Program-made: the position numbers and the translations under genes | Assembly (NCBI GenBank): GCA_963713825.1 | Contig: CAVQNG010000005.1 | Coordinates: 32,001 to 96,000 of the forward strand | Direction: 5' to 3' | DNA from: an uncultured Acidobacteriota bacterium | GTDB taxonomy: Bacteria > Acidobacteriota > Thermoanaerobaculia > Multivoradales > JAHEKO01 | Length of the DNA stretch: 64,000 nt | The notes under the pieces: model-generated | The model's input: the letters and a program-made list of their open reading frames with translations, nothing else | Database searches by the model: none | What the model was told of the DNA's origin: nothing | Shown: positions 11,241 through 36,487 of the stretch, piece after piece | Layout: each line of letters starts with the position of its first letter | How positions within the stretch are numbered: the stretch's first letter is position 1

Positions 11241-12563
11241 CTACATCTGCCGGTAGCCCTGGACCGCCCAGTTGAGGTCGAGTCGCTCTCCCTGCCAGCG
11301 CGGAAACCCTGTGTGGGAGTCGATCGAGATGTCCTCCTCCTCGAGCAGGCTCTCGAGCTCCGCCAAGGGGTCCTCGACCAGGGGTGGTGGCGGCGGCACG
11401 GTCGGAATCTCCCAGCCTTGGGGCCGGAAGAAGCGCAGCTCACCATCTGTGGTGTGTTCGATGCGGTATCCCTCTTCGTGGACGGCCCGATGATGACGGC
11501 GACACAGTAGAACCAGGTTGTCGAGACTCGTTACCCCTCCGTTGGCCCAGTGTTTCAGGTGATGAGCCTCGCAATGCTTCAATCCGCAGCCCGGAAACTG
11601 GCAGCCTTCGTCCCTGGCGGTCAGAGCGCGGCGAATCGGGGTGGGAATCGTGCGAGTGCGGCGGCCGACATCGAGGACGTTGCCCTCGGAGTCGTGTTTC
11701 ATGATCACTTTGCCCGCATCACAGGCGAGCCGCCGAGACGTTTCCGCGGAAACGTCTGTGCCGTCCTCCAGCATGGACACTCCGGGCGCATCGGGGTCCT
11801 CGAGCACTTGGCTCTCGACATGCACCACCACCTGTAGACGCTCGGCCCGGGTGCCCTTGTCGATTCCACCGGCCAGCGCACTCTCCGCCACCAGGCCCAA
11901 GGCATCTGCTCGTCGCTGGCGGACCGGGACTCCATCGCCTCGCTCGTCCTTGGTCTCCCTCTCTCTGTCATAGAGCACCTGCTCGGCTGCCTCCAGAGCT
12001 TTCAGCAGAGCGGCTCCCACTTCCGGCTCCAATCGTGCCCGTAGCACGATCATGCCGTCGTAATCCGTGGTGGCCGCCAGGTAGCGGCTGGCGTGACGTA
12101 GATTCTCTCGGTGGACCTCGTCCTGCCGATCGACACGGCGCCAGGCCCGCACCAGCTTCTCCACATGGGCGGCCGTTCCAGCCCGAGCGAATTCGAGGAG
12201 CTCCGCCTCGTTCTCAGGGGTCGCCACTCGGGTCAGGGCCCTGACCTTGGAGTAGGAGAGCTCCCCACAACCCATCGCCTCGGAAAGAAGCGGCAACTCG
12301 CCCAGGGCCTTGGCCACTCGTACCTTCTCCCGGGCCGCGCCCAGGTCGAGCCCAGTGCGCCAGTTGAGCCAATGGGCACAGGAGCGAAAGCCGGTGTTCC
12401 AACCGCTCTTCTCGTCGAACTCCCGGATCAGGACCAGCAGGTGGTAAGTGGCAGCCTGGATCTGGGCCGAGAGCTCGGCGATTCGCTCACCGAGCTGGTC
12501 GACCTCCGAGGTTCTGGGACCAAGCTGAGAGTGAGAATTCGGGGAGGCAATAGGTTCGATCAT
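11241..12563 (-). CDS. DUF222 (13E12-repeat family) + HNH endonuclease protein
   Basis: 'AHWLNWRTGL...AREKVRVAKAL' DUF222; 'RDEGCQFPGC...EAHHLKHWANGG.TSLDNLVLLCRRHHRAVH' HNH; SD GGAGG before ATG 12563. Confidence 0.9.
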   Translation of the reverse strand: MIEPIASPNSHSQLGPRTSEVDQLGERIAELSAQIQAATYHLLVLIREFDEKSGWNTGFRSCAHWLNWRTGLDLGAAREKVRVAKALGELPLLSEAMGCGELSYSKVRALTRVATPENEAELLEFARAGTAAHVEKLVRAWRRVDRQDEVHRENLRHASRYLAATTDYDGMIVLRARLEPEVGAALLKALEAAEQVLYDRERETKDERGDGVPVRQRRADALGLVAESALAGGIDKGTRAERLQVVVHVESQVLEDPDAPGVSMLEDGTDVSAETSRRLACDAGKVIMKHDSEGNVLDVGRRTRTIPTPIRRALTARDEGCQFPGCGLKHCEAHHLKHWANGGVTSLDNLVLLCRRHHRAVHEEGYRIEHTTDGELRFFRPQGWEIPTVPPPPPLVEDPLAELESLLEEEDISIDSHTGFPRWQGERLDLNWAVQGYRQM

Positions 12564-12857
12564 GGCGTTCCCTCCAGGAGTCACGCACCTATTATAAACC
12601 CCGTATTTTCAACGCTTTAGCTTGCCCACTGGCGCACGATCGAGGGGCCTAGAGGCATCTTCGTTACGCTTCTCGAGGTACGCCACGCAGGGAGCAACCC
12701 AGGGCCACACAGACCCTTTCAAAGGTCGATCTCAGAGGCTCCGAAAATTGACGCGAAAATCCTGTCAAGTCTTTTCTTCGATCTTTTCGATCAATCTGTG
12801 TGTTACTCGACCATCGACCGACTGGCTCCTCCTGAAGTCAGTGGAGTAGCTGAAGCC

Positions 12858-15626: not shown

Positions 15627-18374
15627 TTCGGGCCTGCGAATTCGGTGGTCCAGTTCTGGACCAGGATAAAGGGTTCCTCGGTGGGCTGCTCGGCGACGCG
15701 GTTGAGCAGGAACCGTTGACCGTCGAGGGAGGCATCGAATTCCAGTCCCCAGCTACCGATGTTGCGGAGACGCGCCTGGAAGAGCGCCTGCGGCTCGCCG
15801 ACCTCGGGATGCTCCGACAAGCGGATTGGAACCGCGGTTACATGACCATCGGCAGACCAGTAGTAGAGCTCCTGGCCGTCGGATCGCCAGAGCGGCATGG
15901 TGCCGCCGTTGTCGGTGATGGGGATCTTCTCGCGCCTCTCCGGAAAGCTCTGCAGGTAGATCTCGAACCTGCCGGATTCGTTGGAGGTGTAGGCCAACCA
16001 GCGGCCATCGGGCGAGAAGCGCCCGTCCCGCTCCGAAAAGGACGTTGCGAGCCAGGGCTGAGCGGTACCATCGTCCAGGTCGTGGATCCAGAGGTCATTG
16101 ACCATCTCCGACTCGAGCGTGCGATCCCGGCGAAAGAGCAGGTAGCTCCCGTCGGGGGATACGTCGCACGGTGAGCCGTCGCCTACGACCAGGCGCGGCT
16201 CCGCGCCGCCCGAGAGGCTCTTGACGTAGATGTCGTTGCGCTCCTCGACCCGCACGTAGTAGACCTCACTGTCGTCGCGTGACCAGACGGGAAGTGTCTC
16301 GTCGACCTCGCTGTAGGTGAACCGGTTGGGTACGGCACGCGCCAGGTCGAAGACCCACAGGTCGGCGAGAGGGAGGCTCTGGTCCACGACAACCCTCCGG
16401 CCGTCGTGCGAGATGCGGGGATAGTAGAACTCGCTAGGTGGGGCCACAGTCTCTTTGAAGATCCCAGCTCGGTCGACCCACACGAGATCGGTCGTCGCCA
16501 CGGCGGCGTCACCGGGCAGGTAGGCCAGCAACCCGCTGCCGGATATCGCGAAGAAGCCGTTGACAGGCCAGTTCGCGCGCACCCGGTCGGCCACTCGGAA
16601 GATCTCGTCTCCCAGAGTCATACTCTCGACATCGAAAGTGCGGGCACGCAGGGACCCACTCTCCCAGAAGATCAGGTAGCCCGGCGCGGCGTAGGCAGCA
16701 TGCAGTCCGTTGTCGGCCGTCAGAAGGCGAACCTCTGAGGAGTCCAGCGAACCCACATAGATTCCAGTGAGCGTCTCGCCCTGATCGAGTACCGAGAACA
16801 GAAAACGACGGCCGTCTGGAAGAAAGGACGGGCGCATGTGGTAGTCGCGGAGAACACCTGGTGCGACCTCGGCGGCCTCGGTCACGGCGCCACCCGTGGA
16901 GTCGACGCGCTTGATTCCCTGGCCCCAATCTCCGGGTGCGAAGACGATCACGCCGTCCTGGTTCCAACTGCCTCCCTCGGGGACAGGCGCGTCGGCTAGA
17001 ACTTCGGGCTCGCCACCCTCGAGGTCGACTCGTTTGAGCTTCCCATTGGCGAAGAAGCCGAGAGCGCTCCCATCGGGAGACCAGAACGGGGAAGTCGCTC
17101 CTTCGGTGCCTTGTAGGATCCTGACGGTCGAGCTGTCGAGCGATCGCACCGCGAGCAACGCCGTGCCGTCCGTATCGACGGCGACAAAGGCCAGGCGGCT
17201 ACCGTCGGCCGAGAAGGCCATGGGTCCCCGCGAGGTGCTGTAGGCGAGCTCCTCTGGGGCCGGGAGTGCCGACACCAGTCGCGAGGCCACCGAGGGGTCC
17301 TCGGCCGATGGGTTTCTGAGACCGACTACCAGCGCGAAGGTTACGGCCGCCGCCGCCAAGCCCCAGGGCAGCCATCGCTGCCAGGCTGGGATCGTCTGTC
17401 CTGGCTCTGCAGTCGATTCCTCGTTTTCCGGTTCCGCCTGCGATTGACGAATCTGGATGCGGGCTTCGCCGATGTCGCGCAAGCGGTTCATCGGGTCCCG
17501 ATCGACACAGCGCACCAGCAACCTGCGAATCGAGTCGGGGGTCTCGGGTGGTAGCGCATCGAAATCGATGTCCGCGCGGACCACCGCTGCGAGAACGTCG
17601 GTTACCGAGGGGCCGGCGAAGAGCTGGCGACCGGCCAGGAGCTCGAAGAGCAGGACTCCGAAGGCCCAGATATCGCACCGCTTGTCGACCTCCTGGCCTC
17701 GGGCCTGCTCGGGAGCCATGTAGGCCGCGGTACCGAGAAGCATCCCAGGCTGGGTCATCTGGGCGGTGAGCGTCGGTGACATCGACAGTGGGGACTGGAT
17801 CGGATCTCGATCCGTTCCTGTCCCCGTTTCGAGCGCCTTGGCAAGGCCGAAGTCGAGTACCTTGACCTTGCCGCCGGGGGTGACCTTGACGTTGGCGGGC
17901 TTGAGATCCCGGTGGACGATCCCCTGACCATGGGCCTCTTCGAGAGCATCAGCCACCTGCGCCGCCATCTCGAGAGCATCGTCCATCGGCACACCTCGAG
18001 CAATGAGCTCTTGAAGAGTGTCGCCATCGACGAGCTCCATGACGAGGAAGTGGATAGAGGGTCCTGGGTCCTGGGGCTTGGGTCCTGGGGTTTTCCCCCG
18101 CCCCGTCTTTTTTGAAGCGGCCGGACCCTGTGCCGGCCGTCGCGCGTTCGAACGAGTAGATCGCAGCGATGTTCGGGTGATTGAGCGAAGCAAGGACCTT
18201 CGCTTCGCGCTCGAAGCGGGCCAGGCGCTCGGGATCGGAGGCCACTGCATCGGGCAGGACCTTGATTGCGACCTCACGCCCCAGCTTGGTGTCCTCGGCC
18301 AGGTAAACCTCACCCATGCCGCCCTCGCCGAGCTTGGCGGTGATCTTGAAATGCGCGAGGGTGGATCCGATCAT
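15623..18374 (-). CDS. K4: Ser/Thr kinase + TM + PD40 beta-propeller; +1 frameshift at ~18091-18094
   Basis: N-terminus in ORF 17949..18374, remainder in ORF 15623..18313. Reads GGGG-TTTT-CCCCC where paralogue K3 has GGGG-ATT-CCCCC. Confidence 0.88.
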
Positions 18375-18506: not shown

Positions 18507-20876
18507 CTAGGGCAGCCCGAGCCTCTCCAAGGCTTCGCGAATGCGATCATCGGCGATGATGTCTTCCTGCTCGCAGAAGGCCCGCGTCCAGGCGAAGAGG
18601 GTGTCGTGCTCGGCGTGGGCGCGTTCGGCCCAGCGGATTGCTTCGTCGGTGTTACCGCGGGCGATCTCGATCACGGTTCGGCCCGTCGGCGTAACATAGG
18701 TCGTCTCCGAAAGCTTGTCGAGCTTGGCGATATATCGCTCGCCCATCTCCGATTCACCGAAGTGGAAGTGCATGGCCGCGAGGATGCAGTTGAACCAAGG
18801 CACCTCCCCCCCAGTGAGCTCGTTGCCCTTCTCCATGTTGGTGATCGCCGCCTCGCGGTCCCGCCGCTTCCAGTTGATGTAGGACAGCATGTAGAAGTTG
18901 AACCAGTAGTCTGGGAACAGCTCCTGAGCCTTGCGGGCAGCGATCTCGGCTTCATCGTTGCGTCCGGCATAGAAGAGCATCAGCGAGTCATGCGCCACGA
19001 CGATCGGGTTCAGGGGGTCGAGCTCGAGGGCGGGGAGAAACGCCGCGACCATCTCTTCGTCTCGCCGCATGGTCGCCAAAATGCCGGCATGGAAGAAGTG
19101 GGACCATGCGTACTGAGGGTTCTTCTGGATTCCGAGGCGAACCTCTGCCAAGGCGTTCTCCCAGTCGAAGTCGTGCCAGGCAAGGTAGATCGCGAGACTA
19201 GGATGTGCCTCTCCCAGCTGCGGGTCGAGCTCGAGAGCTCGCTCCGCAGAGGCGCGCATTCGGGGCATGGCCTCGGCTCCCGGAAGGCTTCCGAAGATTG
19301 AGCGGTAGAGGTAGTTCTCCGCCATGACCGCGTAGGCCTGGGCGTAGTTGGGATCGAGCTCGATCGCCTCCTCGAGACACTCGTGGGCGGCGACGAGTCC
19401 GGGCTCCCAGAAATCGGTCATGTGGTGACGGGCCTTGAGGAGCAGGTGGTAGGCCTCGAGGTTGCCGGTGCTGGGGCGGATGAGTGGCCCCTCGGACTCG
19501 GCTCGAAGCTCGACGTGAAGTTGCTCGACAATGGCCTGGGCGATCTCGTCCTGGGTGTCGAAGATGTCCTTCATCTCGCCATCGAAACGCTCGGCCCACA
19601 GCTTGTAGCCATCCGCGCAGTTGACGAGCTCGGTAGTGATGCGCAGACGGTTTCCGGCGATGCGTACACTGCCCTCCAGAACGACCTCCACGTCGAGCTT
19701 CTGACCGACCTCGCGCACATCGAGCTCCTGTCCGCGGAATTGGAAGGCAGAGCTCCGAGCCGTGACCCGGAGACCAGGGAGCTTGCTCAGCGCGTTGATC
19801 AGCTCCTCCGACAAGCCGTCGCAGAAGTAGTCGTCATCCTCCTTGCCACTACGGTTGACGAACGGTAGGACCGCGATCGACCTCTCACGCAAAGCTTCTG
19901 CAATCGTGGACACCCCGGAGACCGAAGTGTCCCGAGAGCCAGAACCGGAGCTTGGCACGGGGGAGGGTGCTGTGACCGGTGATGGTGCGGAGGCAGGAGC
20001 CTCTTGGACGGTGACGCTGGTGTCTGACTCGTACTCTTTGCGGAAGCTCTCCAGCTCGTAGGCCAGATCGCTCGCCGACGAGTAGCGGCGCTGCGGGTCC
20101 TTCTCCAGGCACCGAGTGAGAATCCGCCCCAGGTGCCTGGGTAGATCGGTCCGGATCTCGACCACAGGTTGGGGAACGTCCTTCAGGATGGAAGACATCA
20201 GTGCCGGAGAGGTGTCGCCTTGAAACGGACGGTCGCCGGTGACCATCTCGAAGAACAGCACACCGAGCGAGAAGATGTCCGTGCGGGCGTCGACCCGCTT
20301 CCCCTCGACCTGTTCGGGCGACATGTAGGGGATCGTTCCGATCACCAGACCTTCCTGCGTCAGCGCCTCGGTCGGCATCTGGGTCATCTCGGGCGCCACC
20401 GGTTCCTCGGTCAGCTTCGCGAGGCCGAAGTCGAGCACCTTGACCTGGCCTTCCCGGTTCACCATGACGTTGGCGGGCTTCAGGTCTCGATGAGCGATGC
20501 CCTTGGCGTGAGCCGACGCGAGAGCCTTGGTCATGGCGATGGCCAGCTCGAAGAAGCGGCCGAGCTCGAGCCCTCCGGGAGGGATCACCTGGTTGAGCGT
20601 GTGGCCTTCGACGAGCTCCATGGTGATGAAATGGGTAGCGTTGTCTTCCTCGACCGAGTAGATCGTGACGATGTTGGGGTGGTTCAGAGCCGCGACCGCT
20701 CGTGCTTCTCGCTGGAATCGCTCCAGGCGCGTTGGATCTCCCGCCATTTCCGCTGGGAGGACCTTGATCGCAACATCCCTTCCGAGCTTCGTGTCCTCGG
20801 CCAGGTAAACCTCACCCATGCCGCCCTCGCCGAGCTTGGCGGTGATCTTGAAGTGGGAAAGGGTGGTGCCAATCAT
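18507..20876 (-). CDS. K5: Ser/Thr kinase + TolB-N-like (SIAVLPF) + TPR; no TM helix
   Basis: Catalytic motifs; Ser/Pro-rich linker without a hydrophobic stretch; 'SIAVLPFVN...DGLSEELINALS...VLEGSVR'; TPRs. Confidence 0.93.
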   Translation of the reverse strand: MIGTTLSHFKITAKLGEGGMGEVYLAEDTKLGRDVAIKVLPAEMAGDPTRLERFQREARAVAALNHPNIVTIYSVEEDNATHFITMELVEGHTLNQVIPPGGLELGRFFELAIAMTKALASAHAKGIAHRDLKPANVMVNREGQVKVLDFGLAKLTEEPVAPEMTQMPTEALTQEGLVIGTIPYMSPEQVEGKRVDARTDIFSLGVLFFEMVTGDRPFQGDTSPALMSSILKDVPQPVVEIRTDLPRHLGRILTRCLEKDPQRRYSSASDLAYELESFRKEYESDTSVTVQEAPASAPSPVTAPSPVPSSGSGSRDTSVSGVSTIAEALRERSIAVLPFVNRSGKEDDDYFCDGLSEELINALSKLPGLRVTARSSAFQFRGQELDVREVGQKLDVEVVLEGSVRIAGNRLRITTELVNCADGYKLWAERFDGEMKDIFDTQDEIAQAIVEQLHVELRAESEGPLIRPSTGNLEAYHLLLKARHHMTDFWEPGLVAAHECLEEAIELDPNYAQAYAVMAENYLYRSIFGSLPGAEAMPRMRASAERALELDPQLGEAHPSLAIYLAWHDFDWENALAEVRLGIQKNPQYAWSHFFHAGILATMRRDEEMVAAFLPALELDPLNPIVVAHDSLMLFYAGRNDEAEIAARKAQELFPDYWFNFYMLSYINWKRRDREAAITNMEKGNELTGGEVPWFNCILAAMHFHFGESEMGERYIAKLDKLSETTYVTPTGRTVIEIARGNTDEAIRWAERAHAEHDTLFAWTRAFCEQEDIIADDRIREALERLGLP

Positions 20877-20987
20877 CTCAGTCTCCCGCCAGCAGAAGTG
20901 CCGGCCGCGTCACAAGATTCGTGGCTCGTGCCAATGACGGAATGCCGGTGATTCTACACGGCATTGAGGACTTCGGTTGTTGACGAC

Positions 20988-22592: not shown

Positions 22593-22742
22593 GCCACCTC
22601 CTAGAGGGGAGCCGGGCCGATACTGAGATTATGAAGATCCCTTGCCCGCGATGCAATAGCAGGAAGGGTGGAAGGGGTTGTGCCGGTTATCGATTCTCAG
22701 AACGAAGCGGCCGACGCCCCTGCAGGCCGATGGGCGAGTGGG

Positions 22743-25478
22743 TCATCGATTCGGGAGCTCCGCTGGCCAATTGACGACGAGATTCACCACGGTCTCGGAG
22801 TTTCGCTGCTTGTTGGACCAGACGAGGAGCCTTTCGCCATCAGGGGCCAGGGCGAAGCTGGTTCCATCGGGTCTGGGAGGCTGAATCTGAAACAGCGGCT
22901 GAAGCTTGCCCGGTTGCAGGGATTCGGAACCGAAGGCGATCTCCGCCGCCACCAGCTGACCGTTCTGCTGCGTGAAGACGATCTCGCGGCCATCCGACCG
23001 CCACTGGGGGAAGAGCCCACCCTCTTGTGACACCTGCCAGCGGCGCCCTGCCTCCGGAAAAGGGGCCACGTAGATCTCATAGCGTCCCGACTCATTGGAG
23101 GAATACGCCACCCATCGGCCGTCGGGCGAGAAGGAGCCACAGCGTTCGTCGGCTTCCGTTTGCCGGAACGGTTTCGACTCGCCTCCTGCGCCTAGGTCCA
23201 ACACCATGAGGTCCCTGCTAGTGCCGGGCAGGGTCTGGTGGACCAACAGGGACCGCTCGTCTGGCGACACGCTGCACAGGATCATGTCTTCTTCTCGATC
23301 GACCAGGAGCTCTGTGTCACCGACTCCACCGACAGCCTTGCGATTGATTACGAAACGGTTGTTGTGCAACGCGCTGAAGATTACGCTGTCGCCATTCTCC
23401 GACCAGTCCAGGCCGAAGTTCGACATCGTTTCGAACGTGAAACGGCTGCGAAGACCGGTCTCGACATCGGTTAGCCAGAGATTACTGAGGCCCCCAGGGT
23501 CGAAGATGTCGGAGATCGCCTGCCTGCCATCCGGAGACAGTGCGATGGGCCCGAAGTTGGCCGGCTCGCCGACCGTATTCAGAACGTTGCCGGTGCGGTC
23601 TCTCCATTCGAGGGGCACCTCCGGATTGAGCACCCCAGTGTTGTAGGCGAGTAACCCGGAGTCGGAAGTGGAGAAGATCCCTAGTGCGGCGCCCGAAACG
23701 GTCAGGATCCCTTCCACCAGAGGAGTCGCCTCTCCCGTCAGCTCGAGTCGATCGGGGTCGAACCGCTGCGCCATCAGGGTACTGCCGCGGCTGAAGAGCA
23801 GCCAGCCCGCCGAATACTGTGCATTCGTGGGAGTTCTCAGGACCTCTCGACTGACGGGATCTTCGAGGGAGCCCAGCATCAGAGCGCTCTCCTCTTCCGT
23901 AGGACCGCGTGCCAGGTAGAGGAAGTGGCGTCCATCAGGGAGGAAGCGTGGGTGGCGGTGGGAGTTGTGAATCCCAGCCTCGATCTCTGTAACCACCACC
24001 GGCTCGCCACCCGCTGCTGCGACCTTGTGGATCGGCGAGTCAGCCCGGGGTGCGAAGAGGATCTCCCCGTCGCGATTCCACGTACCTCCCTTGCCATTCT
24101 CTGCGGCGCACACCGTAACGGGAGGTCCGCCCACGGTGTCGATCTTCTTCAGGGTCTGATCGACGTCGGTGAAGAAGCCGAGCCATCTCGAGTCTGGCGA
24201 CCAGAATGGATAGGCGGCACTCTCTGTTTCCGGCAGAGCCTCCGCAGCCCCGGTATCGAGAGCCTGGACGTAGAGGCGCACCGTGCCGCTTTCGTCCTGA
24301 ACCGAGAATGCGAGCTTCGTACCATCCGGTGACACCGCGACAGGGCCCGGGTTCCAGGCAGACAAATAGAAGACGCCCTCTTCCGGCGGGAGGATTGCGG
24401 CTCTCAGAACCGGAGTAGGGGAGGCCGGTTCGGAGCGAGACTGCACCCAGACCGCCAACAGTGCGACGGCTGTCAAGCCGAGGAGTGCCCAGGGCAGATT
24501 TTGCTTCCAGCCGGAAACCGGGGCTGGTGCGATTGTGGTCTTGGTGGTTTCGAAGCTGGTGGGATCTTCCAGGTAGTCCTGAATCAGGATCCTGGCGTCG
24601 CCGATGGCCTGCAGTCGTTGCGTCGGCTCTTTGCGAAGGCAGTGCTGCAGAAGGTCCAGGACCTGGGCTGGCGTGTTGGCCGGCAAAAGGTCCCAGTTGG
24701 GCTCCTCTTTGAGCACCGCCGCAAGGACGTGGGAGGCTGTCTTGCCGGCGAACTGCTGGCGTCCGGTCAACATCTCGGCCATGACAACTCCGAACGCCCA
24801 GATGTCTGCCCGCCGATCCGCTGGTTCGCCCGCAGCCTGTTCGGGGCTCATGTACGCTGCAGTGCCGAGCAGCACACCTGCCTGGGTCATCTGAGCGGTG
24901 AGCGTTGGTGACATCGACAGCGGGGACTGGCTCAGATCTCGATCCGTGCCTGTTCCCGGCTCGGGGTCCAGTGCCTTGGCCAGGCCGAAGTCCAGCACCT
25001 TGACCTGGCCACTCGGAGTCACCTTGATATTGGCCGGCTTGAGATCGCGGTGAATGACGCCGATCTCGTGAGCCGCTTCCAGCGCCTGGGAGATTTGCAG
25101 CCCGATCGGCATCGCTTCATCGAGCGGGACCGACCCTCGGTCGATACGCTCCTTGAGGTCTTCGCCCTCGACGAGCTCCATGACGAGAAAGTGGACGGAG
25201 GGGCGTAGGGGCGTAGGGGCTTGGGGGCTTGCCCCCTCCCGTTGCGCTGATTCAAACGAGTAGATGGCGGCGATGTTCGGGTGGTTAAGAGAGGCGAGGA
25301 CCTTGGCCTCACGCTCGAAACGCGCCAGGCGTTCTGGGTCTGCAGCTACGGCCTCGGGTAGCACCTTGATGGCCACTTCACGCCCCAGCTTCGTGTCCTC
25401 GGCGCGGTAGACCTCACCCATGCCGCCTTCGCCCAGCTTGGCGGTGACACGGAAGTGAGAGAGGGTAGTGCCGATCAT
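22743..25478 (-). CDS. K6: Ser/Thr kinase + TM + PD40 beta-propeller; 19-aa REP-derived loop
   Basis: Catalytic motifs; TM 'LPWALLGLTAVALLAVWV'; SPDG repeats. Confidence 0.95.
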   Translation of the reverse strand: MIGTTLSHFRVTAKLGEGGMGEVYRAEDTKLGREVAIKVLPEAVAADPERLARFEREAKVLASLNHPNIAAIYSFESAQREGASPQAPTPLRPSVHFLVMELVEGEDLKERIDRGSVPLDEAMPIGLQISQALEAAHEIGVIHRDLKPANIKVTPSGQVKVLDFGLAKALDPEPGTGTDRDLSQSPLSMSPTLTAQMTQAGVLLGTAAYMSPEQAAGEPADRRADIWAFGVVMAEMLTGRQQFAGKTASHVLAAVLKEEPNWDLLPANTPAQVLDLLQHCLRKEPTQRLQAIGDARILIQDYLEDPTSFETTKTTIAPAPVSGWKQNLPWALLGLTAVALLAVWVQSRSEPASPTPVLRAAILPPEEGVFYLSAWNPGPVAVSPDGTKLAFSVQDESGTVRLYVQALDTGAAEALPETESAAYPFWSPDSRWLGFFTDVDQTLKKIDTVGGPPVTVCAAENGKGGTWNRDGEILFAPRADSPIHKVAAAGGEPVVVTEIEAGIHNSHRHPRFLPDGRHFLYLARGPTEEESALMLGSLEDPVSREVLRTPTNAQYSAGWLLFSRGSTLMAQRFDPDRLELTGEATPLVEGILTVSGAALGIFSTSDSGLLAYNTGVLNPEVPLEWRDRTGNVLNTVGEPANFGPIALSPDGRQAISDIFDPGGLSNLWLTDVETGLRSRFTFETMSNFGLDWSENGDSVIFSALHNNRFVINRKAVGGVGDTELLVDREEDMILCSVSPDERSLLVHQTLPGTSRDLMVLDLGAGGESKPFRQTEADERCGSFSPDGRWVAYSSNESGRYEIYVAPFPEAGRRWQVSQEGGLFPQWRSDGREIVFTQQNGQLVAAEIAFGSESLQPGKLQPLFQIQPPRPDGTSFALAPDGERLLVWSNKQRNSETVVNLVVNWPAELPNR

Positions 25479-25540
25479 CGGTCGTTGCGGCCGGCACGGG
25501 GTCCGGCCGCTTCCTGTTGCTTGTGGGTGGCGCCGATCAT
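25475..25540 (-). other. 21-codon bridge mini-ORF MIGATHKQQEAAGPRAGRNDR linking the K7 stop to the K6 start
   Basis: ATGA overlaps at both ends; contains the hairpin GCGGCCGG-N8-CCGGCCGC. Confidence 0.7.
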
Positions 25541-28245
25541 CTGGAGGCGAGCTTCTCCGTCCAATTTAAGACCAGAGATGCTCTCGTCGAACCCAAGTTG
25601 TCTTCCGGTTGCAGGACCAGGAACCTGCTTCCATCTGCAGAGACGTCAAAGGTGAAGTCGCCTGTCAGGAAGGGGCGATACGAGAACAGCGTTGTCTCTT
25701 GCCCGCCTCGGAAACCGTCCTCGGAAGTTTCGACGGGTGCCGCTTTCATCTCTCCTGAAGGGGAGAGGTAGAAGATCTCTTTGCCGTCGCCACGCCACTG
25801 TGCGTAGTCACCGCCCGCGCTCGAGACCTGCCATTTCCCTTCGAGGTCGGGAAACGAGGTCACGAAGACCTCGCGGATTCCCGACTCGTCGGAGGTATAG
25901 GCGAGCCAGCGGTTGTCGGGTGAGAAGGCGCAAGGCCACTCATTGAAGTCGCCGCCACGCAGTTCGACCGGCTCGGTCGAGTTTCCCCTCATCCTCAGCC
26001 CCAAGAGCTGTTCTCCTTCGACCTCCGAGCGTCCGTAGCACAGCCACTCGCCGTCAGAGGACCAATCATAGACCCACAGATCCCTGGTGTCGGAGGCGAT
26101 CAGCTCTTCCGTAGCGGTGCCGCTGACCGCCTTCTTGTAGATATCAAAGGAACCAGTTCGATTGTCACTATAGGCGATGGTACGACCATCCGGAGACCAG
26201 GCTGCGTTGCCAGTGTCCAGGCCGTCATCTGTGCTGGAGCTGAAGGTGAAGCGCGTTTTGACTCCTCGGTCCAGATCGAGAAGCCAGAGGTCTGCGCCTC
26301 CGCTCTTGGTATCTGCGATGGATATGGAAGCCGTACCTCCATCCGGTGACAGTCGAATCGACTGATAGGTCGCGGGCTCGCCTACGACCTCGACCGTTTT
26401 TCCCTCCCGATCCATCCAAACGATCGAGGCCGCCATGTTGATCAAGCCTCCAGGGTGAAAGGCCAGGACGCCGTTCGACGAGGCCGAGAAGGTCCCCATG
26501 GTGAAGGCGGAGTCGAAGAGTACGTTCTCTAACAACGGGATGGGATCGCCAGTGGTTTCCAAGCGGTCGGTATCGAAAGGCTGCGCGATGAGAGTCGACT
26601 CACGCATGTAGAGCAGGTGACCGGAGGCATAGGCAGCATTGGAAGCCATGTCGAGAACCCGCTTTCGCTCGCCGGTATCGATATCGACAGCAAAAACGCC
26701 CGGGTCGATTCCGGCTCCTCCAGATGTCGAGCGGGCGAGAAAGAGAACATTCCGGCCATCGGGAAGAAAATGGGGATATCGGTGGGTCTGCTCACTGCGC
26801 TCGGCGTCGAGTTGTGTGACCTGCTTGGGCTCGCCGCCGCCCTCGGGAATGCCCATCAACGGGCCTGTGAGATTGGGGGCGTAGACGATCGTGCCGCCCG
26901 ATCCCCAGGTGCCGCCGCGAGTATCGTTGACTTCGGTCAGAGCGATGGGCGGTCCACCCAGAACCGAGATCCGTTTCAAACGGGAACCCGCGAAGAAGCC
27001 GAGGTGTTGGGAGTCTGGTGACCAGAAGGGTCTGATGGCACCCTCCGTACCTGGAAGAGGGCTACCCATCGATTGATCGAGAGATCGGTGCCACAGCTGC
27101 TGGTTGCCTGCCTCGTCGATAGCCGAAAACGCCAGACGGGTGCCGTCGGGAGATACGACTACAGGTCCGGCGGTGAAGCCCGCTGGAACAAGAAGCACTC
27201 CCTCCGGCATCACGACGCTGGCGTTGACAAGAGGCATCGGTGTAGGAGATCTCTTGAAATAGGCGAGTCCGAAACCTGTGGCAGCCAAGCCAGCCAGGGC
27301 GAATGCAATCCAGGGAACCGCTCGCTTCCAGGTAGGCGGTCCGGGATCGGCGGGAGATCCGGTCGCCGGAGCAAAGGCATCCTCGCCGTTGGTCAGGAAC
27401 GTGCGGATCGCGATTCGAGCCTCGCCGATATCGCGCAGTCGCTCTTGTGGGTCGCGAGTCAGGCAGCGGCGCAGCAGCCGGGTGACCGACACCGGTGTCG
27501 TTTCCGGCAGCAGCGCCAGGTCGGGCTCGGTCTTGAGGACCTCGGCCAGGGTGTCGGAGACGGTATCGCCGGCAAAAAGTTGTTTCCTTGTGAGCATCTC
27601 CCACAAGACCACACCGAAAGCCCAGATGTCGGCCCTCTTGTCGGCCTCCTGGCCACGTGCCTGCTCGGGCGACATGTAGGCTGCCGTTCCCATCAGGACA
27701 CCAACCTGGGTCATCTGTGCGGTGAGCGTGGGAGATAGGGATAGGCCCTGGGGTCCTGGGGTCTTGAGGTCTTGGGGGTCCAGTGCCTTGGCAAGGCCGA
27801 AGTCGAGGACCTTGACGGTGCCGTTTGGCGTGACCTTGACGTTGGCGGGCTTGAGATCCCGATGGACAACCCCTTGCTCATGGGCCTCCTCGAGGGCGCT
27901 CGCCACTTGCGCCGCCATCTCCAGGGCGTTCTCGGGTGAAACGCCCTGTTCGATGAGCTCCTGCAGGGTCTCGCCGTCAATGAGCTCGAGTACAAGGAAC
28001 CGTTTGTCGTCGGCTTCTTCGAGACCGTAGATGGCTCCGATGTTCGGGTGGTTGAGCGAGGCGAGAACTTTGGCCTCACGCTCAAAGCGGGCCAGACGCT
28101 CCGGATCGCTGGCAACGGCCTCGGGTAGCACCTTGATCGCCACCTCGCGACCGAGCTTTGTGTCCTCGGCTCGGTACACCTCACCCATGCCGCCTTCGCC
28201 GAGCTTGGCGGTGATTTTGAAGTGAGAAAGAGTGGTGCCGATCAC
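25537..28245 (-). CDS. K7: Ser/Thr kinase + TM + PD40 beta-propeller
   Basis: GTG start (VIGTTLSHF) at 28245; catalytic motifs; TM 'VPWIAFALAGLAATGFGLAYF'. Confidence 0.95.
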   Translation of the reverse strand: MIGTTLSHFKITAKLGEGGMGEVYRAEDTKLGREVAIKVLPEAVASDPERLARFEREAKVLASLNHPNIGAIYGLEEADDKRFLVLELIDGETLQELIEQGVSPENALEMAAQVASALEEAHEQGVVHRDLKPANVKVTPNGTVKVLDFGLAKALDPQDLKTPGPQGLSLSPTLTAQMTQVGVLMGTAAYMSPEQARGQEADKRADIWAFGVVLWEMLTRKQLFAGDTVSDTLAEVLKTEPDLALLPETTPVSVTRLLRRCLTRDPQERLRDIGEARIAIRTFLTNGEDAFAPATGSPADPGPPTWKRAVPWIAFALAGLAATGFGLAYFKRSPTPMPLVNASVVMPEGVLLVPAGFTAGPVVVSPDGTRLAFSAIDEAGNQQLWHRSLDQSMGSPLPGTEGAIRPFWSPDSQHLGFFAGSRLKRISVLGGPPIALTEVNDTRGGTWGSGGTIVYAPNLTGPLMGIPEGGGEPKQVTQLDAERSEQTHRYPHFLPDGRNVLFLARSTSGGAGIDPGVFAVDIDTGERKRVLDMASNAAYASGHLLYMRESTLIAQPFDTDRLETTGDPIPLLENVLFDSAFTMGTFSASSNGVLAFHPGGLINMAASIVWMDREGKTVEVVGEPATYQSIRLSPDGGTASISIADTKSGGADLWLLDLDRGVKTRFTFSSSTDDGLDTGNAAWSPDGRTIAYSDNRTGSFDIYKKAVSGTATEELIASDTRDLWVYDWSSDGEWLCYGRSEVEGEQLLGLRMRGNSTEPVELRGGDFNEWPCAFSPDNRWLAYTSDESGIREVFVTSFPDLEGKWQVSSAGGDYAQWRGDGKEIFYLSPSGEMKAAPVETSEDGFRGGQETTLFSYRPFLTGDFTFDVSADGSRFLVLQPEDNLGSTRASLVLNWTEKLASR

Positions 28246-28258
28246 GAAGATCCCTCGG

Positions 28259-30646
28259 CTATCCTCTGGCCGCCATGCGATCCACCAGTTCCTGAAATCG
28301 GGGATCGTCACGGATGTTGTCGAGATCGCTGTCCTGGCGTAACCACTCGACGTCGGTCTTGCCGGCCGCGACCGATTTCTCCATGGCGTCGATGGCCAGG
28401 TCGACCTCCCCGGCCAGCGAGTAGAAGCAGGCCACGTTGTAAAGCAGCAATCCGTCGTCGGCTGCACTGTCGAGCACCATCTCGACCGCAGCAAACGCTT
28501 TGTCGCGCTGACCTAGGGCCAGCAACCCGGTCGCAGCAGTGAGGCGAACATTCAGATCGTCGGGGTAGAGCTCCAGATGACGAGTCGCCCACTCGAACAT
28601 TCGTCCATAGGCTCTCAGTGCGTCCTCTTCACGGCCCAGACTCGTGTAGACCTGAGGCAAGATGTTGATCGCACTCCGAGTCTCGGGGTCCAACTCGATC
28701 GACTTCTCCCACAGCTCTGCCGCCCTCTCCAGATCACCTTGCCTGTAGAGGAGAGACCCGTAGGCGACGTAATTTGCGGAGCTAGTCGGATCGAGCCGGA
28801 TGGCCTGCTGCAGCTCGGCCTCTGCGCCGGTAAGTTCGTCAGCTCTTTGAAGGTAGAGTGCCCGAGCGCGGTGGGCCTCGGCAAGGTCGGGGGCCAGGGC
28901 CAAGGCCTCGGCACTGGCCTGGCCGGCTGCCTCGAGATTGGCCGGGTCGGCTCCGGCGAAGTGGTAGAGGCTCTCGTGGGCCTTGGTCAGGCCCACCCAG
29001 GCCAACGCATATCCGGGATCGACCTCCGCAGCCCGCTCGTACATCTGAAGGGCGAACTCCCTCGCCTCGGGGGTACCCTGTCTCCGATACTGCTCGCCAC
29101 GCAGATAGAAGTCGTAGGCTTGGGTGTTGTCGGTGCCGCCAAGCTCGACGACGGTTTGGGCGTCGGGTGCCAACTCCAGCCGGAGCGCATCCGCGATACT
29201 GCCAGCGATCTCGTCTTGAACCGCGAAGACATCCTCCAGCTCGCGGTCATAGGTCTCCGACCACAGCTTGAAACCGTCGCTGACCTGGACCAGCTGGGTC
29301 GAGATACGCAACCGATTGCCGGCCTTGCGAACGCTACCTTCGAGGACGGTTTCCACCCCGAGTCGGTCGCCCACCCTTTGAATATCGAGATCCTTGCCCT
29401 TGAGCGCAAAGATCGCCGTGCGCGATGGCACCTTGAGTCCCTCGATCGTACCCAGAGCCTGGAGGAGCTCCTCGGTCATGCCGTCAGTGAAATACTCCTG
29501 GTCCTTTTCTGGGCTGAGATCCGCGAAGGGCAGAACTGCCACCGAGGGGGCGGCGGAAACAGGCGTCCGGGGGGACTCCGTCTCGACAGTCTGTTCCTTT
29601 CTGCCACGTCCGATCCACCAAGTCGCTGCCGCGACCAGGAACAGGGCTGCCCCGATCAGGGCCCACTTGCCGAGCTGTCCTCTCGCAGGTACTGGCATCG
29701 CCGCGGAGGAAACCGCGGAGCTCGGTGCCGAGCTGGCAGCTGGCATGGATTGATCCGTTAGCTGGGAGGTGCTGGTCGCAACCACCGAATCGGACTGAAC
29801 TTCGTCGCGCAGGCCATCCAGCTCGTTGCGGATGTCCTTCGCCGATTGGTAGCGCCGTTCGGGATCCTTCTCGAGGCAGCGTTGGATGATGCGACCCAAA
29901 TGACGCGGCAGATCGGCTCGCACCTCGGTTACTACCGCGGGAGTCTCACGAAGGATTCTCGACGCCAGATCGATACCGCTCTCGCCCTGGAAGGGGCGCT
30001 GGCCGGTGGTCATCTCATAGAGCACAACACCGAGCGAGAAGATGTCGGTCCGGTCATCGACCACCTTGCCCTGAAGCTGCTCTGGAGACATGTAGGGAGC
30101 AGTGCCCATGACCGTACCTTCCTTGGTCAGGGTCGCGGCTTCGGTGGCAGCTTCCTCGGTCGGGGCCTGGGCCTCGGTCGCCAGCTTGGCCAGCCCGAAG
30201 TCCAACATCTTGACCCGGCCATCGGAGGTGACCATGACATTTGCGGGCTTCAGGTCCCGATGGACGATGCCCTTCTCGTGCGCTGCGGCGAGTGCATCGG
30301 CCATCGGGATGGCGATGTCGAAAACCTTCGCCAGCGGCATACCCTGGGGCGGCACGAGTTGGTCGAGGCTCTCGCCCTCGACGAGCTCCATGATCAGAAA
30401 GCGTTGCCCGCTGTCCTCTTCGATGCTGTAGATGGCGACGATGCTCGGATGATTGAGCGCGGCCACTGCCTTGGCCTCGCGGCGAAAGCGCTCCAGGCGC
30501 TCAGGGTGGTCGGCCATCGCCGCCGGCAGCACCTTGAGAGCGACCTTGCGGTCGAGCTCGGTGTCCTCGGCCAGATACACCTCACCCATTCCACCTGCGC
30601 CGAGCTTGGCGGTGACTCGGAAGTGAGAGAGGGTAGTGCCGATCAT
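28259..30646 (-). CDS. K8: Ser/Thr kinase + TM + TolB-N-like + TPR
   Basis: Catalytic motifs; TM 'WALIGAALFLVAAATWWIG'; 'SVAVLPFADLS'; TPRs. Confidence 0.95.
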   Translation of the reverse strand: MIGTTLSHFRVTAKLGAGGMGEVYLAEDTELDRKVALKVLPAAMADHPERLERFRREAKAVAALNHPSIVAIYSIEEDSGQRFLIMELVEGESLDQLVPPQGMPLAKVFDIAIPMADALAAAHEKGIVHRDLKPANVMVTSDGRVKMLDFGLAKLATEAQAPTEEAATEAATLTKEGTVMGTAPYMSPEQLQGKVVDDRTDIFSLGVVLYEMTTGQRPFQGESGIDLASRILRETPAVVTEVRADLPRHLGRIIQRCLEKDPERRYQSAKDIRNELDGLRDEVQSDSVVATSTSQLTDQSMPAASSAPSSAVSSAAMPVPARGQLGKWALIGAALFLVAAATWWIGRGRKEQTVETESPRTPVSAAPSVAVLPFADLSPEKDQEYFTDGMTEELLQALGTIEGLKVPSRTAIFALKGKDLDIQRVGDRLGVETVLEGSVRKAGNRLRISTQLVQVSDGFKLWSETYDRELEDVFAVQDEIAGSIADALRLELAPDAQTVVELGGTDNTQAYDFYLRGEQYRRQGTPEAREFALQMYERAAEVDPGYALAWVGLTKAHESLYHFAGADPANLEAAGQASAEALALAPDLAEAHRARALYLQRADELTGAEAELQQAIRLDPTSSANYVAYGSLLYRQGDLERAAELWEKSIELDPETRSAINILPQVYTSLGREEDALRAYGRMFEWATRHLELYPDDLNVRLTAATGLLALGQRDKAFAAVEMVLDSAADDGLLLYNVACFYSLAGEVDLAIDAMEKSVAAGKTDVEWLRQDSDLDNIRDDPRFQELVDRMAARG

Positions 30647-30708
30647 CGGTCGTTGCGGCCGGCACGGGGTCCGGCCGCTTCAGGCTCCTTATGGGTAGTG
30701 CCGATCAT
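30643..30708 (-). other. 21-codon bridge mini-ORF MIGTTHKEPEAAGPRAGRNDR linking the K9 stop to the K8 start
   Basis: ATGA overlaps at both ends; 16-bp direct repeat ATGATCGGCACTACCC at 30693-30708 and 30631-30646. Confidence 0.72.
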
Positions 30709-33425
30709 GGGGTGGCCGTGAACATCTGCTCGAGCTCGTCGAACCAGTTGGTGACCATGACGACGTGATCGATCGTATCCGCGCTGTTGGATCCCTGGAA
30801 CATCACCAGGTATTCGGCGCCAGGTGCGACATCGTAGTCCAGGCTCGGGAACAGATCGATAAACCGGGTCTCGAAGAGAGTCTCGGGCCGCTTGGCTCGA
30901 AAGGTGTCTCCCGCGGTCTCGACCGAGGCCGTCGAAATGCCCAAGGCCGTTCGATAGAAGATCTGCTTCTGATCCGACGACCACGTTGGGTAGGTGGCCC
31001 GTTCACCGCCGGCAGAGATCTGCCACTCGCCTCGCCCTGAAGGGAACGGCCGCACGTAAGCCTCGAATCCCCCTGACTCGTTGGAGCCGTAGGTGATCCA
31101 GTTGCCATCGGGGGAAATTCTGCCACCGTACTCGATGAACTTCGTGGTGAGGAACATCTCGGGTTCCCCTTCGCCTTCGAGCTCCATGGTCATGATGTCC
31201 CAGTTGCTCTCTGGGTTGATTTGACTGAAGACGAGTGTTTTGCCATCGGGGGTAAGAGAACTGGGAGCCTGATCAAGATCGGTTTCGGTCAGTCGAACGG
31301 GCTGCTCAGAGCCATCGGCTGCGACGCGGAAGATGTCGTAAGAGTTTCCCCGGTCGGACTGGAAGTAGATCCACTCGCCGTCTGGAGACCAGACAGGTCC
31401 GGTGTCGTCGCCTTCGTCGAAGGTCAATCGGGTGTGAATGCCCCGGTCGAGATCTTCGACCCAGATGTCACCGTTGCCGCTCTCCGAAGCGATGTCGAGG
31501 GCGAGCCGGCGACCATCGGGTGAGAAGGCCGGGGTCCAGAACGTGCCGGAATCTTCGAGAAGTGGAGACACGAGGCCGTCCAGATCGACCCGCACCGCAT
31601 CGTAGGCGGCCGCACTCGCGGCACCCTGCATATAGACCAACTTGCCGTTGTCAGAAACGGCGTAGTGAGCCGTGCCGTAGGCACCCTCGTTGGTCGTCAG
31701 GGACTCGATGACCGGACCGGGAGAGCCTTGGAGCTCCAGGGTGACGGGGTCCATCGGTACCGCGTAGAGCGTTCCCTCACGAGCGTAGAGTAGATGTCCC
31801 GAGTTGGCCCAACGCGGGTAGGTACCGCCCTGGATCAGCACCTTTCTTTCGCCCGACTCCAGATCGAGGACCTCGATCGTGGCCTCTGCAAAACGGGCAT
31901 TCTCGGTGTGGGACACGAAGAGGACGGCCTTGCCATTGGGCAGAACATGCGGCCAACGATGGGTGATCTCTCCCTTCTCCTCATCGAGTGTCGTCAGCTG
32001 CTCGGGCTCACCACCGACCGCGGGAATGCGAAAGAGTGGGGCCTGCTGCCCGGGAGTGAAGATGATGTGGTCGTCCGGTGTCCAGGTTGCACCACGGCAG
32101 AAATCCACCGTGGCGATGGTCAGTGGCGTGCCGCCTGAGACGGACACCTTCTTGAGCTCGTTGGGGGTCACGAAGGCGATCCACTCGCCGTCAGGCGAGA
32201 AGAACGGCAGGTAGGCGAGGTCGCCACCCGAAACCATTCTTCCCTCGAGTTGATCCAAAGATCGCAGATGTAGGGCGCGAGTGGCCGGGTTGCCCGATAC
32301 ATAGGCCAGGTGCGTGCCGTCCGGCGAGATCACGACGCTGCTGCCAATCTGAGTCAACAAGGTGTCCTCGACGGGGATCTCGACATTGAGCCACATGGTT
32401 TCCGCCTGCGACCGATCTGGCGATCGGGTCCAGCCGACAATGGCGGCGGCTCCCGCAACTGCAGCCAGTGCCAGCGCGGCCCACGGCAGAACGCGGCGCC
32501 AGGTGGGTAGCGGAGCGTAGTTGGCTGTGGCGGCTTGGGCCTTGGCAGCCTCAGGATCGGCCAGATAGCCGGCGATGGCGATTCGAGCCTCGCCGATGGC
32601 CTGGAGCCGATCGTTGATCTCCTTCTGGAGACAGCGGTCGAGCAGGTTGCGGACGACCGGAGGCACGTCGGCGGGTAGCGCCTCCCATTCGGGCTCGCGG
32701 GCCAGGATTCCGGCCAGGGTGTCGGAGATGGTCTTGCCGGCGTAGACGGTCTGCCCGGTCAGCATCTCCATGACAACGGCACCAAAGGCCCAGATGTCGG
32801 CTCGGCGGTCGGCGGCTTCGCCGCGGGCCTGCTCGGGGCTCATATAGGCAGCAGTGCCCAGCAACACCCCGGCTCCAGTGTTCATCTGCGCAGTCAGGGT
32901 AGGCGACAGGGAGAGAGAGGGGTGGCTCGGATCCGAGTCCGAACCGGCTCCGGACTCGAGAGCCTTGGCGAGGCCGAAGTCGAGAACCTTGATCTTGCCG
33001 CTTTCGGTGAAGTTGATGTTGGCCGGTTTGAGGTCCCGGTGCACGATGCCTCGGTCGTGGGCCGTTTCCAGGGCTTCGGTGATCTGCAAGGCAATGGTCA
33101 TGGCTTCATCGAGGGACAATCGACCCCGCTTGATCCTCTCAGCGAGAGTCTCGCCCTCCACCAGCTCCATGACCAGGAAGTTGTGATCGTCGTCGTGCTC
33201 GACCTGGTAGATCGCGGCGATGTTGGGGTGATTCAGCGATGCCAGCACCTGGGCCTCGCGGCTGAAGCGAGCCATGCGCTCGGCATCCTGCGCGAAGAGC
33301 TCGGGCAGCACCTTGATCGCCACCTCGCGTCCGAGCTTGGTGTCCTCGGCACGGTACACCTCGCCCATGCCGCCCTCGCCCAGCTTGCCGGTTATCTTGA
33401 AATGAGCCAGAGTCTCACCAATCAT
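30705..33425 (-). CDS. K9: Ser/Thr kinase + TM + PD40 beta-propeller
   Basis: Catalytic motifs; TM 'VLPWAALALAAVAGAAAIVGW'; SD GAGGAG. Confidence 0.95.
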   Translation of the reverse strand: MIGETLAHFKITGKLGEGGMGEVYRAEDTKLGREVAIKVLPELFAQDAERMARFSREAQVLASLNHPNIAAIYQVEHDDDHNFLVMELVEGETLAERIKRGRLSLDEAMTIALQITEALETAHDRGIVHRDLKPANINFTESGKIKVLDFGLAKALESGAGSDSDPSHPSLSLSPTLTAQMNTGAGVLLGTAAYMSPEQARGEAADRRADIWAFGAVVMEMLTGQTVYAGKTISDTLAGILAREPEWEALPADVPPVVRNLLDRCLQKEINDRLQAIGEARIAIAGYLADPEAAKAQAATANYAPLPTWRRVLPWAALALAAVAGAAAIVGWTRSPDRSQAETMWLNVEIPVEDTLLTQIGSSVVISPDGTHLAYVSGNPATRALHLRSLDQLEGRMVSGGDLAYLPFFSPDGEWIAFVTPNELKKVSVSGGTPLTIATVDFCRGATWTPDDHIIFTPGQQAPLFRIPAVGGEPEQLTTLDEEKGEITHRWPHVLPNGKAVLFVSHTENARFAEATIEVLDLESGERKVLIQGGTYPRWANSGHLLYAREGTLYAVPMDPVTLELQGSPGPVIESLTTNEGAYGTAHYAVSDNGKLVYMQGAASAAAYDAVRVDLDGLVSPLLEDSGTFWTPAFSPDGRRLALDIASESGNGDIWVEDLDRGIHTRLTFDEGDDTGPVWSPDGEWIYFQSDRGNSYDIFRVAADGSEQPVRLTETDLDQAPSSLTPDGKTLVFSQINPESNWDIMTMELEGEGEPEMFLTTKFIEYGGRISPDGNWITYGSNESGGFEAYVRPFPSGRGEWQISAGGERATYPTWSSDQKQIFYRTALGISTASVETAGDTFRAKRPETLFETRFIDLFPSLDYDVAPGAEYLVMFQGSNSADTIDHVVMVTNWFDELEQMFTATP

Positions 33426-33524
33426 TCGTCAACTCCTCGAGCCGGCGGATGTCTTCACAATCCGCACGTTGAGCTCCGATCGCAGGATGTAACGGAACTT
33501 GTTGGCGCCTATTGTATGACGGAA
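32494..33524. repeat. ~1.03 kb direct repeat, copy 1 (promoter region + kinase domain of K9)
   Basis: Aligns to 35457-36487 at constant offset 2963; about 8 mismatches by eye. Confidence 0.92.
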
Positions 33525-36388: not shown

Positions 36389-36487
36389 TCGTCAACTCCT
36401 CGAGCCGGCGGATGTCTTCACAATCCGCACGTTGAGCTCCGATCGCAGGATGTAACGGAACTTGTTGGCGCCTATTGTATGACGGAA
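35457..36487. repeat. ~1.03 kb direct repeat, copy 2 (promoter region + kinase domain of K10)
   Basis: Aligns to 32494-33524 at constant offset 2963. Confidence 0.92.

Follow-up and report, generated by a model that had tools for sequence, protein, structure and literature searches.

Start codons are, as a rule, kept free of mobile DNA. The interspersed repetitive units of mycobacteria (MIRUs), whose original description is said, in passages of PMC12548453 and PMC3184786, to be that of Supply et al. in 1997, are short repeats that lie between co-directional genes. According to a passage of PMC12548453, they insert at start codons and carry an open reading frame (ORF) coupled at −4 spacing, while a section of Delihas (2011) gives their length as 40–100 bp and their number as ~40–50 copies, and lists as further features ORFs that overlap the genes on either side, the occurrence of both empty and filled sites, and direct repeats of a tetranucleotide. 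Citing Shell et al. (2015), PMC12548453 also mentions, in an excerpt, a short ORF that delivers the ribosome to the next gene; another part of it reviews termination-reinitiation, a process that an extract of PMC6728339 treats at overlapping stop and start codons. Rickettsia palindromic elements and other repeats that became fused in frame to genes are described in a section of PMC3184786.

Here, we describe a repeat of related layout at the starts of Ser/Thr-kinase genes in an uncultured bacterium of the phylum Acidobacteriota. The stretch of DNA analyzed (the window) comprises 64,000 nucleotides, positions 32,001 to 96,000 of the forward strand of contig CAVQNG010000005.1 in assembly GCA_963713825.1, or C5:32001-96000 of the source genome in our labeling (G000; 5.42 Mb, 61% GC, 38 contigs); positions given without a contig refer to the window. 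At 12.8–38.8 kb, it harbors a minus-strand, co-directional array of large ORFs in which a Pkinase domain is followed by PD40 propeller repeats or by TPR repeats. An original prediction, made from the letters of the window, had pointed to short ORFs bridging some of these kinases and had proposed either a small palindromic element that sits at kinase starts and preserves translational coupling, or an att-like junction of the array. The former proposal—an element keeping an ATGA-to-ATGA relay frame—is supported by our analysis, and the main inference of the prediction proved largely right, yet the idea of a start-codon repeat that relays ribosomes is already in print for MIRUs, as a passage of PMC12548453 attests. 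MIRUs also appear to be the closest known kind of element by analogy, and a limited literature search—a weak negative—did not find the cassette described. Taken as a whole, we consider it probable that a 62-nt leader cassette, inserted after nucleotide 16 of kinase genes, relays ribosomes to the kinase start and spreads by recombination among paralogues.

The leader cassette and its sites

Two joints of the array carry a bridging ORF of 21 codons plus stop. Bridge J2 (30643..30708, minus strand) connects K9, a 906-aa Ser/Thr kinase with a PD40 propeller (30705..33425, minus), to K8, a 795-aa Ser/Thr kinase with TPR repeats (28259..30646, minus), whereas bridge J1 (25475..25540, minus) connects K7 (25537..28245, minus; GTG start) to K6 (22743..25478, minus), both of them Ser/Thr kinases with PD40 repeats. 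J2 translates to MIGTTHKEPEAAGPRAGRNDR and J1 to MIGATHKQQEAAGPRAGRNDR, each followed by the stop codon and, as had been predicted, each with ATGA at both ends: the ATG of the bridge overlaps the TGA of the upstream kinase (K9 or K7), and its own TGA overlaps the ATG of the downstream one (K8 or K6). Read along the minus strand, J2 is composed of a 16-mer (30708..30693), 11 variable nt (30692..30682), a GAAG-hairpin (30681..30656), and a 9-nt spacer (30655..30647), after which the kinase ATG begins at 30646. J1 has the same order: its 16-mer occupies 25540..25525, its variable 11 nt 25524..25514, its hairpin 25513..25488, and its spacer 25487..25479, and the kinase ATG follows at 25478.

The GC hairpin of the original prediction, GCGGCCGG-ACCCCGTG-CCGGCCGC, has an 8-bp stem and is present in the minimum-free-energy fold of both bridges. 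It was the sole consistent feature of the whole-leader folds, which were no stabler than those of shuffled sequences (z −1.9 to +0.3), and neither a promoter-like nor a terminator-like site was seen on the coding strand at the junction copies. A leader-peptide attenuator of the trpL or ermCL type was rejected, as there is a single hairpin, no alternative pairing in the folds, and no terminator-like site on the coding strand. An Rfam search of 25000-31200 at E-values up to 1 returned no match at the bridges and two sub-threshold chance matches elsewhere.

The predicted 16-bp repeat flanking a 46-bp core at the K9>K8 joint is exact: the 16-mer ATGATCGGCACTACCC occurs at 30693-30708 and at 30631-30646, with 46 nt in between. 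At J1, the upstream copy has two mismatches to it. With at most three mismatches, the 16-mer has 14 matches in the window and corresponds to the conserved kinase start; all kinases begin ATGATYGG. A 43-mer reaching from GAAG to ATGATCGG occurs twice in the window, each time exactly, versus no occurrence in 100 shuffles. Indeed, J1 and J2 are identical over 64 consecutive nt, from GAAG through kinase nucleotide 29, compared with 20 of 27 identical positions in the first 27 nt of the bridge and 77% identity over the next 100 kinase nt. Being copies of one sequence, the two bridges count as one observation, not two.

That identical 16-mers enclose a hairpin in J2 would also suit the take-off and landing contexts of a ribosome that leaves the first ACC and lands 62 nt downstream on the matching one, a bypass like that of phage T4 gene 60. 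However, the downstream copy has its own ATG, the 16-mers of other copies are unequal, and the take-off codon is not followed by a stop, so the chance of such a bypass is next to negligible.

The original prediction had suggested a search for filled versus empty junctions, and both states were found at three orthologous sites, each cassette-filled in some genomes and empty in others (G002, G003, G004, G005, and G052 denote relatives of G000; L-numbers denote loci, of which L209 is metagenomic). The K9>K8 joint is filled in G000 and L209 (62 nt each) and in G005 (a 167-nt form that has three hairpins and in which 54 nt are duplicated in tandem), but is a direct ATGA in G003 and G004, in both of which the downstream kinase is truncated after ~41 codons; in G002, the cassette copy is cut by a contig end and its ATG is lost. 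The K7>K6 joint is filled in G000 and a direct ATGA in G005. Finally, the 5′ end of K9 itself is empty in G000, with a Shine-Dalgarno site followed by MIGETLAH, and filled in G002, the two kinase orthologues being 87% identical over 919 aa. In the G002 orthologue, the same Shine-Dalgarno site as in G000 precedes ATGATCAGTGAGACTC, the cassette, and ATGATTGGCACTACCC, with mismatches between the two 16-mers at 6 of 16 positions. Within the window, the empty state is also present where it had been predicted: the K4 stop and the K3 start overlap directly as ATGA (15623..15626, minus).

Because the G002 16-mers are unequal, the native start was retained upstream and a foreign start was brought along by the cassette, which makes the unit 62 nt long including the kinase start: 11 variable nt, the 26-nt GAAG-hairpin, the 9-nt spacer, and the cassette's own copy of the kinase start. 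It always lies directly behind nucleotide 16 of the kinase ORF, so that two starts stand 62 nt apart. The old start codon stays beside the cell's start signals and opens the 21-codon frame that ends with TGA on the new kinase ATG. Only 40–41% of positions in the 11-nt and 9-nt segments are identical between copies, with lengths mostly kept.

The same inequality argues against the 16-nt repeat being the target-site duplication to which it had been likened. A transposable element of the miniature inverted-repeat type (MITE) aimed at kinase starts and leaving 16-bp duplications would account for the exact J2 repeat (16 of 16) and for the existence of filled and empty sites, and the genome does contain four ORFs with a Y1_Tnp domain, whose best family is that of the REP-associated tyrosine transposases (RAYTs; REP_Tyr_transpos). 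Yet these four ORFs score 49–59 bits against a family cut-off of 80, and the 3.2-kb loci around them (1.5 kb each way) contain no hairpin of the family. Moreover, the flanking copies are unequal elsewhere, with 2 of 16 positions mismatched at J1, 4 of 16 at C10, and 6 of 16 at the G002 K9 orthologue, where the upstream copy is of the native MIGET type and the downstream copy of the foreign MIGTT type. Terminal inverted repeats are lacking, the sole inverted repeat being the internal hairpin, and enzymes of the IS200/IS605 type are not known to make target duplications. We therefore regard a MITE as very unlikely.

To chart the distribution, 45 genomes of the family were scanned with a pattern consisting of the hairpin, 9 nt, and ATGATYGG, with the reversed pattern as control. 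This yielded 15 places in seven of the 45 genomes, 13 of them at kinase starts, versus none for the control. A covariance model (R1), trained on nine cassette copies and used at a threshold of 44 bits, returned 19 places in six genomes from two genera of one Thermoanaerobaculia family; there, the cassette is located at Ser/Thr-kinase starts only, and all six matches in G000 are kinase starts or relics of such starts. Seven of the weak R1 matches below 40 bits were read and not counted: either the hairpin was generic and no kinase accompanied it, or a kinase start came with a different hairpin. Over 78 loci related to K8 from other genomes, R1 gave one weak match only; either the cassette is limited to a narrow clade, or near relatives are missing from this collection. 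A 17-nt degenerate pattern of the bridge start, with which 151 genomes from the order were scanned, was rejected: its matches were mostly ordinary GC-rich coding sequence, and only one of the 12 places read, that in G000, was a cassette relic.

Three start contexts precede the cassettes. In the first, of the leaderless type, a −10-like box (TACAAT or TAGAAT) lies 8–12 nt upstream (C10 of G000, G003:C181, G052:C21, and G002:C456). The second is a Shine-Dalgarno site (G002:C97, and also G003:C130, where the kinase start is deleted), and the third is the stop codon of an upstream kinase within ATGA (J1, J2, G005:C557, and the metagenome locus L209). Most cassettes are preceded by promoters or by a Shine-Dalgarno site and do not join two kinases. 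At plain kinase starts, a −10-like hexamer ending 5–12 nt upstream was found in 6 of 51 cases versus 0.07 expected, arguing that leaderless-type starts are usual in this kinase family.

This distribution bears on the second proposal of the original prediction. An att- or attC-like site, at which a site-specific recombinase exchanges kinase cassettes, would agree with a same-strand gene array that has a palindrome at some joints and with a downstream kinase that varies at one of them (G005 has a K6/K7-like kinase after K9). However, the majority of array joints are without such a site, the usual place of a cassette is behind the promoter of a single kinase, and the hairpin family is also found 3′ of tRNAs and of unrelated genes. 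Nor is a recombinase gene among the large ORFs of the window (which, besides kinases, encode MFS, beta-lactamase-fold, and other proteins), although no search aimed at integrases was made. An att-like junction hence seems quite implausible.

Compared with MIRUs—by layout, not by sequence—the cassette is likewise a short repeat between co-directional genes (62 nt, with variants of 74, 86, and 167 nt), has an internal ORF that overlaps both neighbors at −4 spacing (J1, J2, G005:C557, and L209), shows filled and empty homologous sites, and forms tandem copies (G005:C557 and L191). Unlike MIRUs, it resides in Acidobacteriota, is tied to one gene family instead of being scattered over ~40–50 loci, and carries the first 16 nt of its host gene (in copies that are unequal at several loci) rather than tetranucleotide direct repeats. 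It also follows leaderless-type and Shine-Dalgarno starts, and its hairpin also belongs to a distinct repeat family spread over the genome.

Frame integrity and a proposed ribosome relay

In the mechanism we propose, ribosomes coming off the upstream kinase, or initiating at the old start, would translate the 21 codons and melt the hairpin, then terminate on the UGA and reinitiate on the overlapping AUG of the kinase. Given such a relay, the insertion would cost little expression. As in known termination-reinitiation systems, the cassette overlaps its neighbors in an ATGA at either end, lacks a Shine-Dalgarno site ahead of the downstream ATG, and has within the upstream frame a hairpin that would be opened by translation; unlike in those systems, the relay ORF belongs to a cassette that is repeated and movable, and it is known here from sequence alone. 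We give a relay function by termination-reinitiation slightly better than an even chance. Pointing to constraint, the bridge ORF is intact at 12 loci, where it has a start and reads without a stop to the closing ATGA. The lengths there are 62, 74, 86, and 167 nt, each of them 2 modulo 3, and the 11-nt and 9-nt segments mostly keep their lengths despite their low identity.

Alternatively, the cassette may be real and spread by recombination, with its 21-codon frame an untranslated by-product, the kinase translated independently, and the hairpin serving as a spacer resembling repetitive extragenic palindromes (REPs) or as a 3′-end hairpin. We consider this unlikely, though still a serious contender. 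In its favor, some 20 codons are often open by chance in GC-rich DNA, and, since all kinases start with ATGATYGG, any read-through in frame 2 must stop on ATGA. Set against it are the 9-nt spacers, in which no Shine-Dalgarno motif was seen, and the 8-bp GC hairpin, which ends 9 nt before the kinase ATG, as well as the lack of a promoter-like site on the coding strand in the junction copies. Furthermore, the ORF is kept at four of five assessable kinase>kinase junctions (J1, J2, G005:C557, and L209, the exception being G002:C97:1-136). In a single case, that of the kinase K5, loss of the cassette's start goes together with a weakened hairpin and with GGGAG ahead of the ATG.

Several observations weigh against the relay, the first two of them in support of the by-product alternative. 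First, a working ORF is lost at 7 of 19 assessable loci with the kinase start still in place, from which it follows that the relay is not indispensable. The start codon is lost at C5:18561 of G000, at G005:C52, and at K5; the start is shifted and the spacer extended to 24 nt at G052:C21:161699; a stop lies just upstream at G003:C190; a TAG follows after eight codons at L191; and the chain of frames is interrupted at G052:C21:155577. Among these seven, a long open kinase ORF was confirmed only for the pair in G000, C5:18561 and K5. Second, ~3–5 of the length changes from 62 nt keep the frame versus 3 that break it—no clear difference from chance, and so no clear enrichment of frame-keeping changes. 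Third, owing to their common descent from one sequence, the frame shared by the 62-nt copies reflects inheritance rather than repeated evidence. Fourth, the constancy of the spacer is partly of the search's making, as the pattern scans demanded 9 nt, and the lengths of the tandem forms may be assembly artefacts, since the relatives are fragmented metagenome-assembled genomes (MAGs) whose contigs break at repeats. Fifth, the polymorphic sites are compatible with gain as well as with loss. Lastly, the contigs of sequencing runs X1 and X2 (DNA) and X15 and X16 (RNA) on 30300-31000 are mostly short pieces of paralogous kinases, and none crosses the junction with 31 nt on each side, a result that speaks neither for nor against transcription or either allele; every run compared contained less than half of the sampled words.

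A genome-wide hairpin family and the probable spread of the cassette

The hairpin of the cassette belongs to a larger set. Its motif, GAAG plus CGGCCGG-loop-CCGGCCG, has 56 regular-expression matches in the 5.4-Mb genome G000, 43 of them with an AAG/CTT flank. Only this 26-nt hairpin recurs genome-wide, not the 46-nt core that the original prediction had treated as the repeated unit. Judged by crude ORF calls, 35 of the 56 copies fall outside ORFs and 28 of these 35 are co-oriented with the upstream gene, often 6–25 nt past its stop; by reading, three copies stand directly 3′ of tRNAs. The commonest loop is CGCCCCT, whereas the loop ACCCCGT occurs only three times, each time 9 nt before a kinase ATG (J1, J2, and C5:18571). 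By analogy with its relatives elsewhere, which seem to do so, the hairpin of the cassette may act as a 3′-end hairpin of the upstream gene. Separately, four tandem 46-nt units with one family hairpin each were observed at C25:945078-945239 of G000, within or antisense to a long open frame.

With REPs and bacterial interspersed mosaic elements, the family has in common a GC-rich imperfect palindrome of ~26 nt, a fixed 5′ tetranucleotide (GAAG), and tens of copies that lie mostly just after genes, and RAYT-like ORFs are present in G000 as in REP/RAYT systems. In contrast to REPs, the tetranucleotide is not GTAG, some copies are in frame inside kinase domains, and the kinase cassette holds more than a REP; in contrast to RAYT systems, the RAYT-like ORFs are without flanking hairpins. 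By sequence, the hairpin behaves like a REP, and its membership in a REP/RAYT system is putative.

One copy of the hairpin lies antisense in the kinase domain of K3 (15367..15391, plus strand) and is read in frame, and another is found in K4 (18115..18139, plus), in an inserted stretch that bears a 1-nt frameshift. The persistence of the family within a reading frame, as in K3, is reminiscent of Rickettsia palindromic elements; unlike these, the bridge copies form a separate short frame that is not fused to the kinase protein. In both K3 (12858..15626) and K4 (15623..18374), the hairpin and its flanking GC-rich repeats lie antisense after IYSFE, and K6 and the kinase at 39014..41812 have different repeat-derived inserts at the loop used in K3 and K4. 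K4 is split into two frames (17949..18374 and 15623..18313, minus) and has one extra base relative to K3, ggggattccccc against ggggttttccccc; the split represents either a pseudogene or a sequencing error.

How might the cassette have reached so many kinase starts? We suggest that recombination or gene conversion, rather than a transposase, accounts for its gain and loss among paralogous kinases. Homology would be provided by the 16-nt start on the left and the long kinase coding sequence on the right, and recombination between the two 16-mers would provide a route of loss. Two observations are pertinent here: cassette copies resemble one another more closely than do the genes that carry them (64 identical nt in J1 and J2, as opposed to 77% identity over the next 100 nt), and loop types have been exchanged between cassettes and the generic hairpin repeat. 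Recombination between paralogues appears a better reading than target-site duplication, and a transposase, which nothing supports, appears unlikely.

Beyond this, it is conceivable, though we hold it rather less than probable, that the repeat parasitizes one gene family. Its own copy of the 16-nt start would supply the homology for entry into any paralogous kinase, while the 21-codon relay, working from any start signal, would keep the cassette harmless, and cassettes would in turn act as crossovers that delete, duplicate, and reshuffle the kinases of the array.

Decayed copies accompany the intact ones. The leader of K5 (18507..20876) contains a copy at 20877..20938 (minus; 54.8 bits with the covariance model) that lies behind a TAGAAT box, is still 62 nt long, and is open to the ATGA; its start is now GTC, its hairpin is weakened, and GGGAG precedes the ATG. 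After K6, a bridge-like relic (22687..22746, minus) begins with an ATG that overlaps the K6 TGA and runs for 19 codons (MTHSPIGLQGRRPLRSENR). Its frame crosses a reverse-oriented REP-like hairpin and ends with TAA on a decayed kinase start, ATAACCGGCACAACCC, with no kinase after it.

Further unusual loci deserve mention. Outside the window, at C5:11162-11705 of G000, a bridge-like start with a hairpin (VIGTTHPILEAAGTPAGR, C5:11635-11705) is followed by an unrelated gene pair of the leaderless type, which by eye resembles a ribbon-helix-helix antitoxin with a RelE/ParE-type toxin. In L098 (G003:C130:6790-6868), the hairpin and spacer run out of frame into kinase codons from ~68 onward (…NIAAIHSFES), an arrangement suggestive of a deletion that reached from the spacer (AATATCGGC-like) to a similar internal CCGAAYATCGCC. 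In the complex leader of L015 (G052:C21:155577-155776), the unit of 9-nt spacer plus 16-nt kinase start occurs three times, accompanied by two hairpins and by short frames that are only partly chained.

The kinase array and implications for its biology

The kinase family is large in this organism, with 75 kinase G-loops found by a motif scan of G000. Not every joint of the array is bridged: K8 and K7 are separated by a 13-nt gap without a bridge, in which GAGGGA reads as a putative Shine-Dalgarno-like site. The 90-nt upstream regions of K9 and K10 (33426-33515 and 36389-36478, minus) are identical, which points to tandem duplication in the recent past. Parts of C5, at ~65–80 kb and 101–103 kb, recur in contigs C21 and C22, which represent assembly redundancy or strain variants. 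Also inside the array, an ORF with DUF222 and an HNH endonuclease (11241..12584, minus) bears a faint likeness to the IscB HNH region (22.8 bits versus a cut-off of 175).

Like MIRUs, the cassette appears to exemplify one low-cost way to occupy a start codon, in which the ribosome would be passed through a short overlapping frame. What is new is the setting—the phylum Acidobacteriota and, within it, the class Thermoanaerobaculia, known only from sediment MAGs—and the link to one expanded family of Ser/Thr kinases. New as well is that one and the same cassette is found behind three start signals (a stop codon, a start of the leaderless type, and a Shine-Dalgarno site), at all of which it must work if the relay is true. 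The loci offer natural material on termination-reinitiation and on leaderless upstream ORFs beyond model bacteria, and the cassette provides a marker for the rearrangement of large kinase arrays. For the annotation of such genomes, it follows that 21-codon frames and the true starts of the kinases are easily miscalled.

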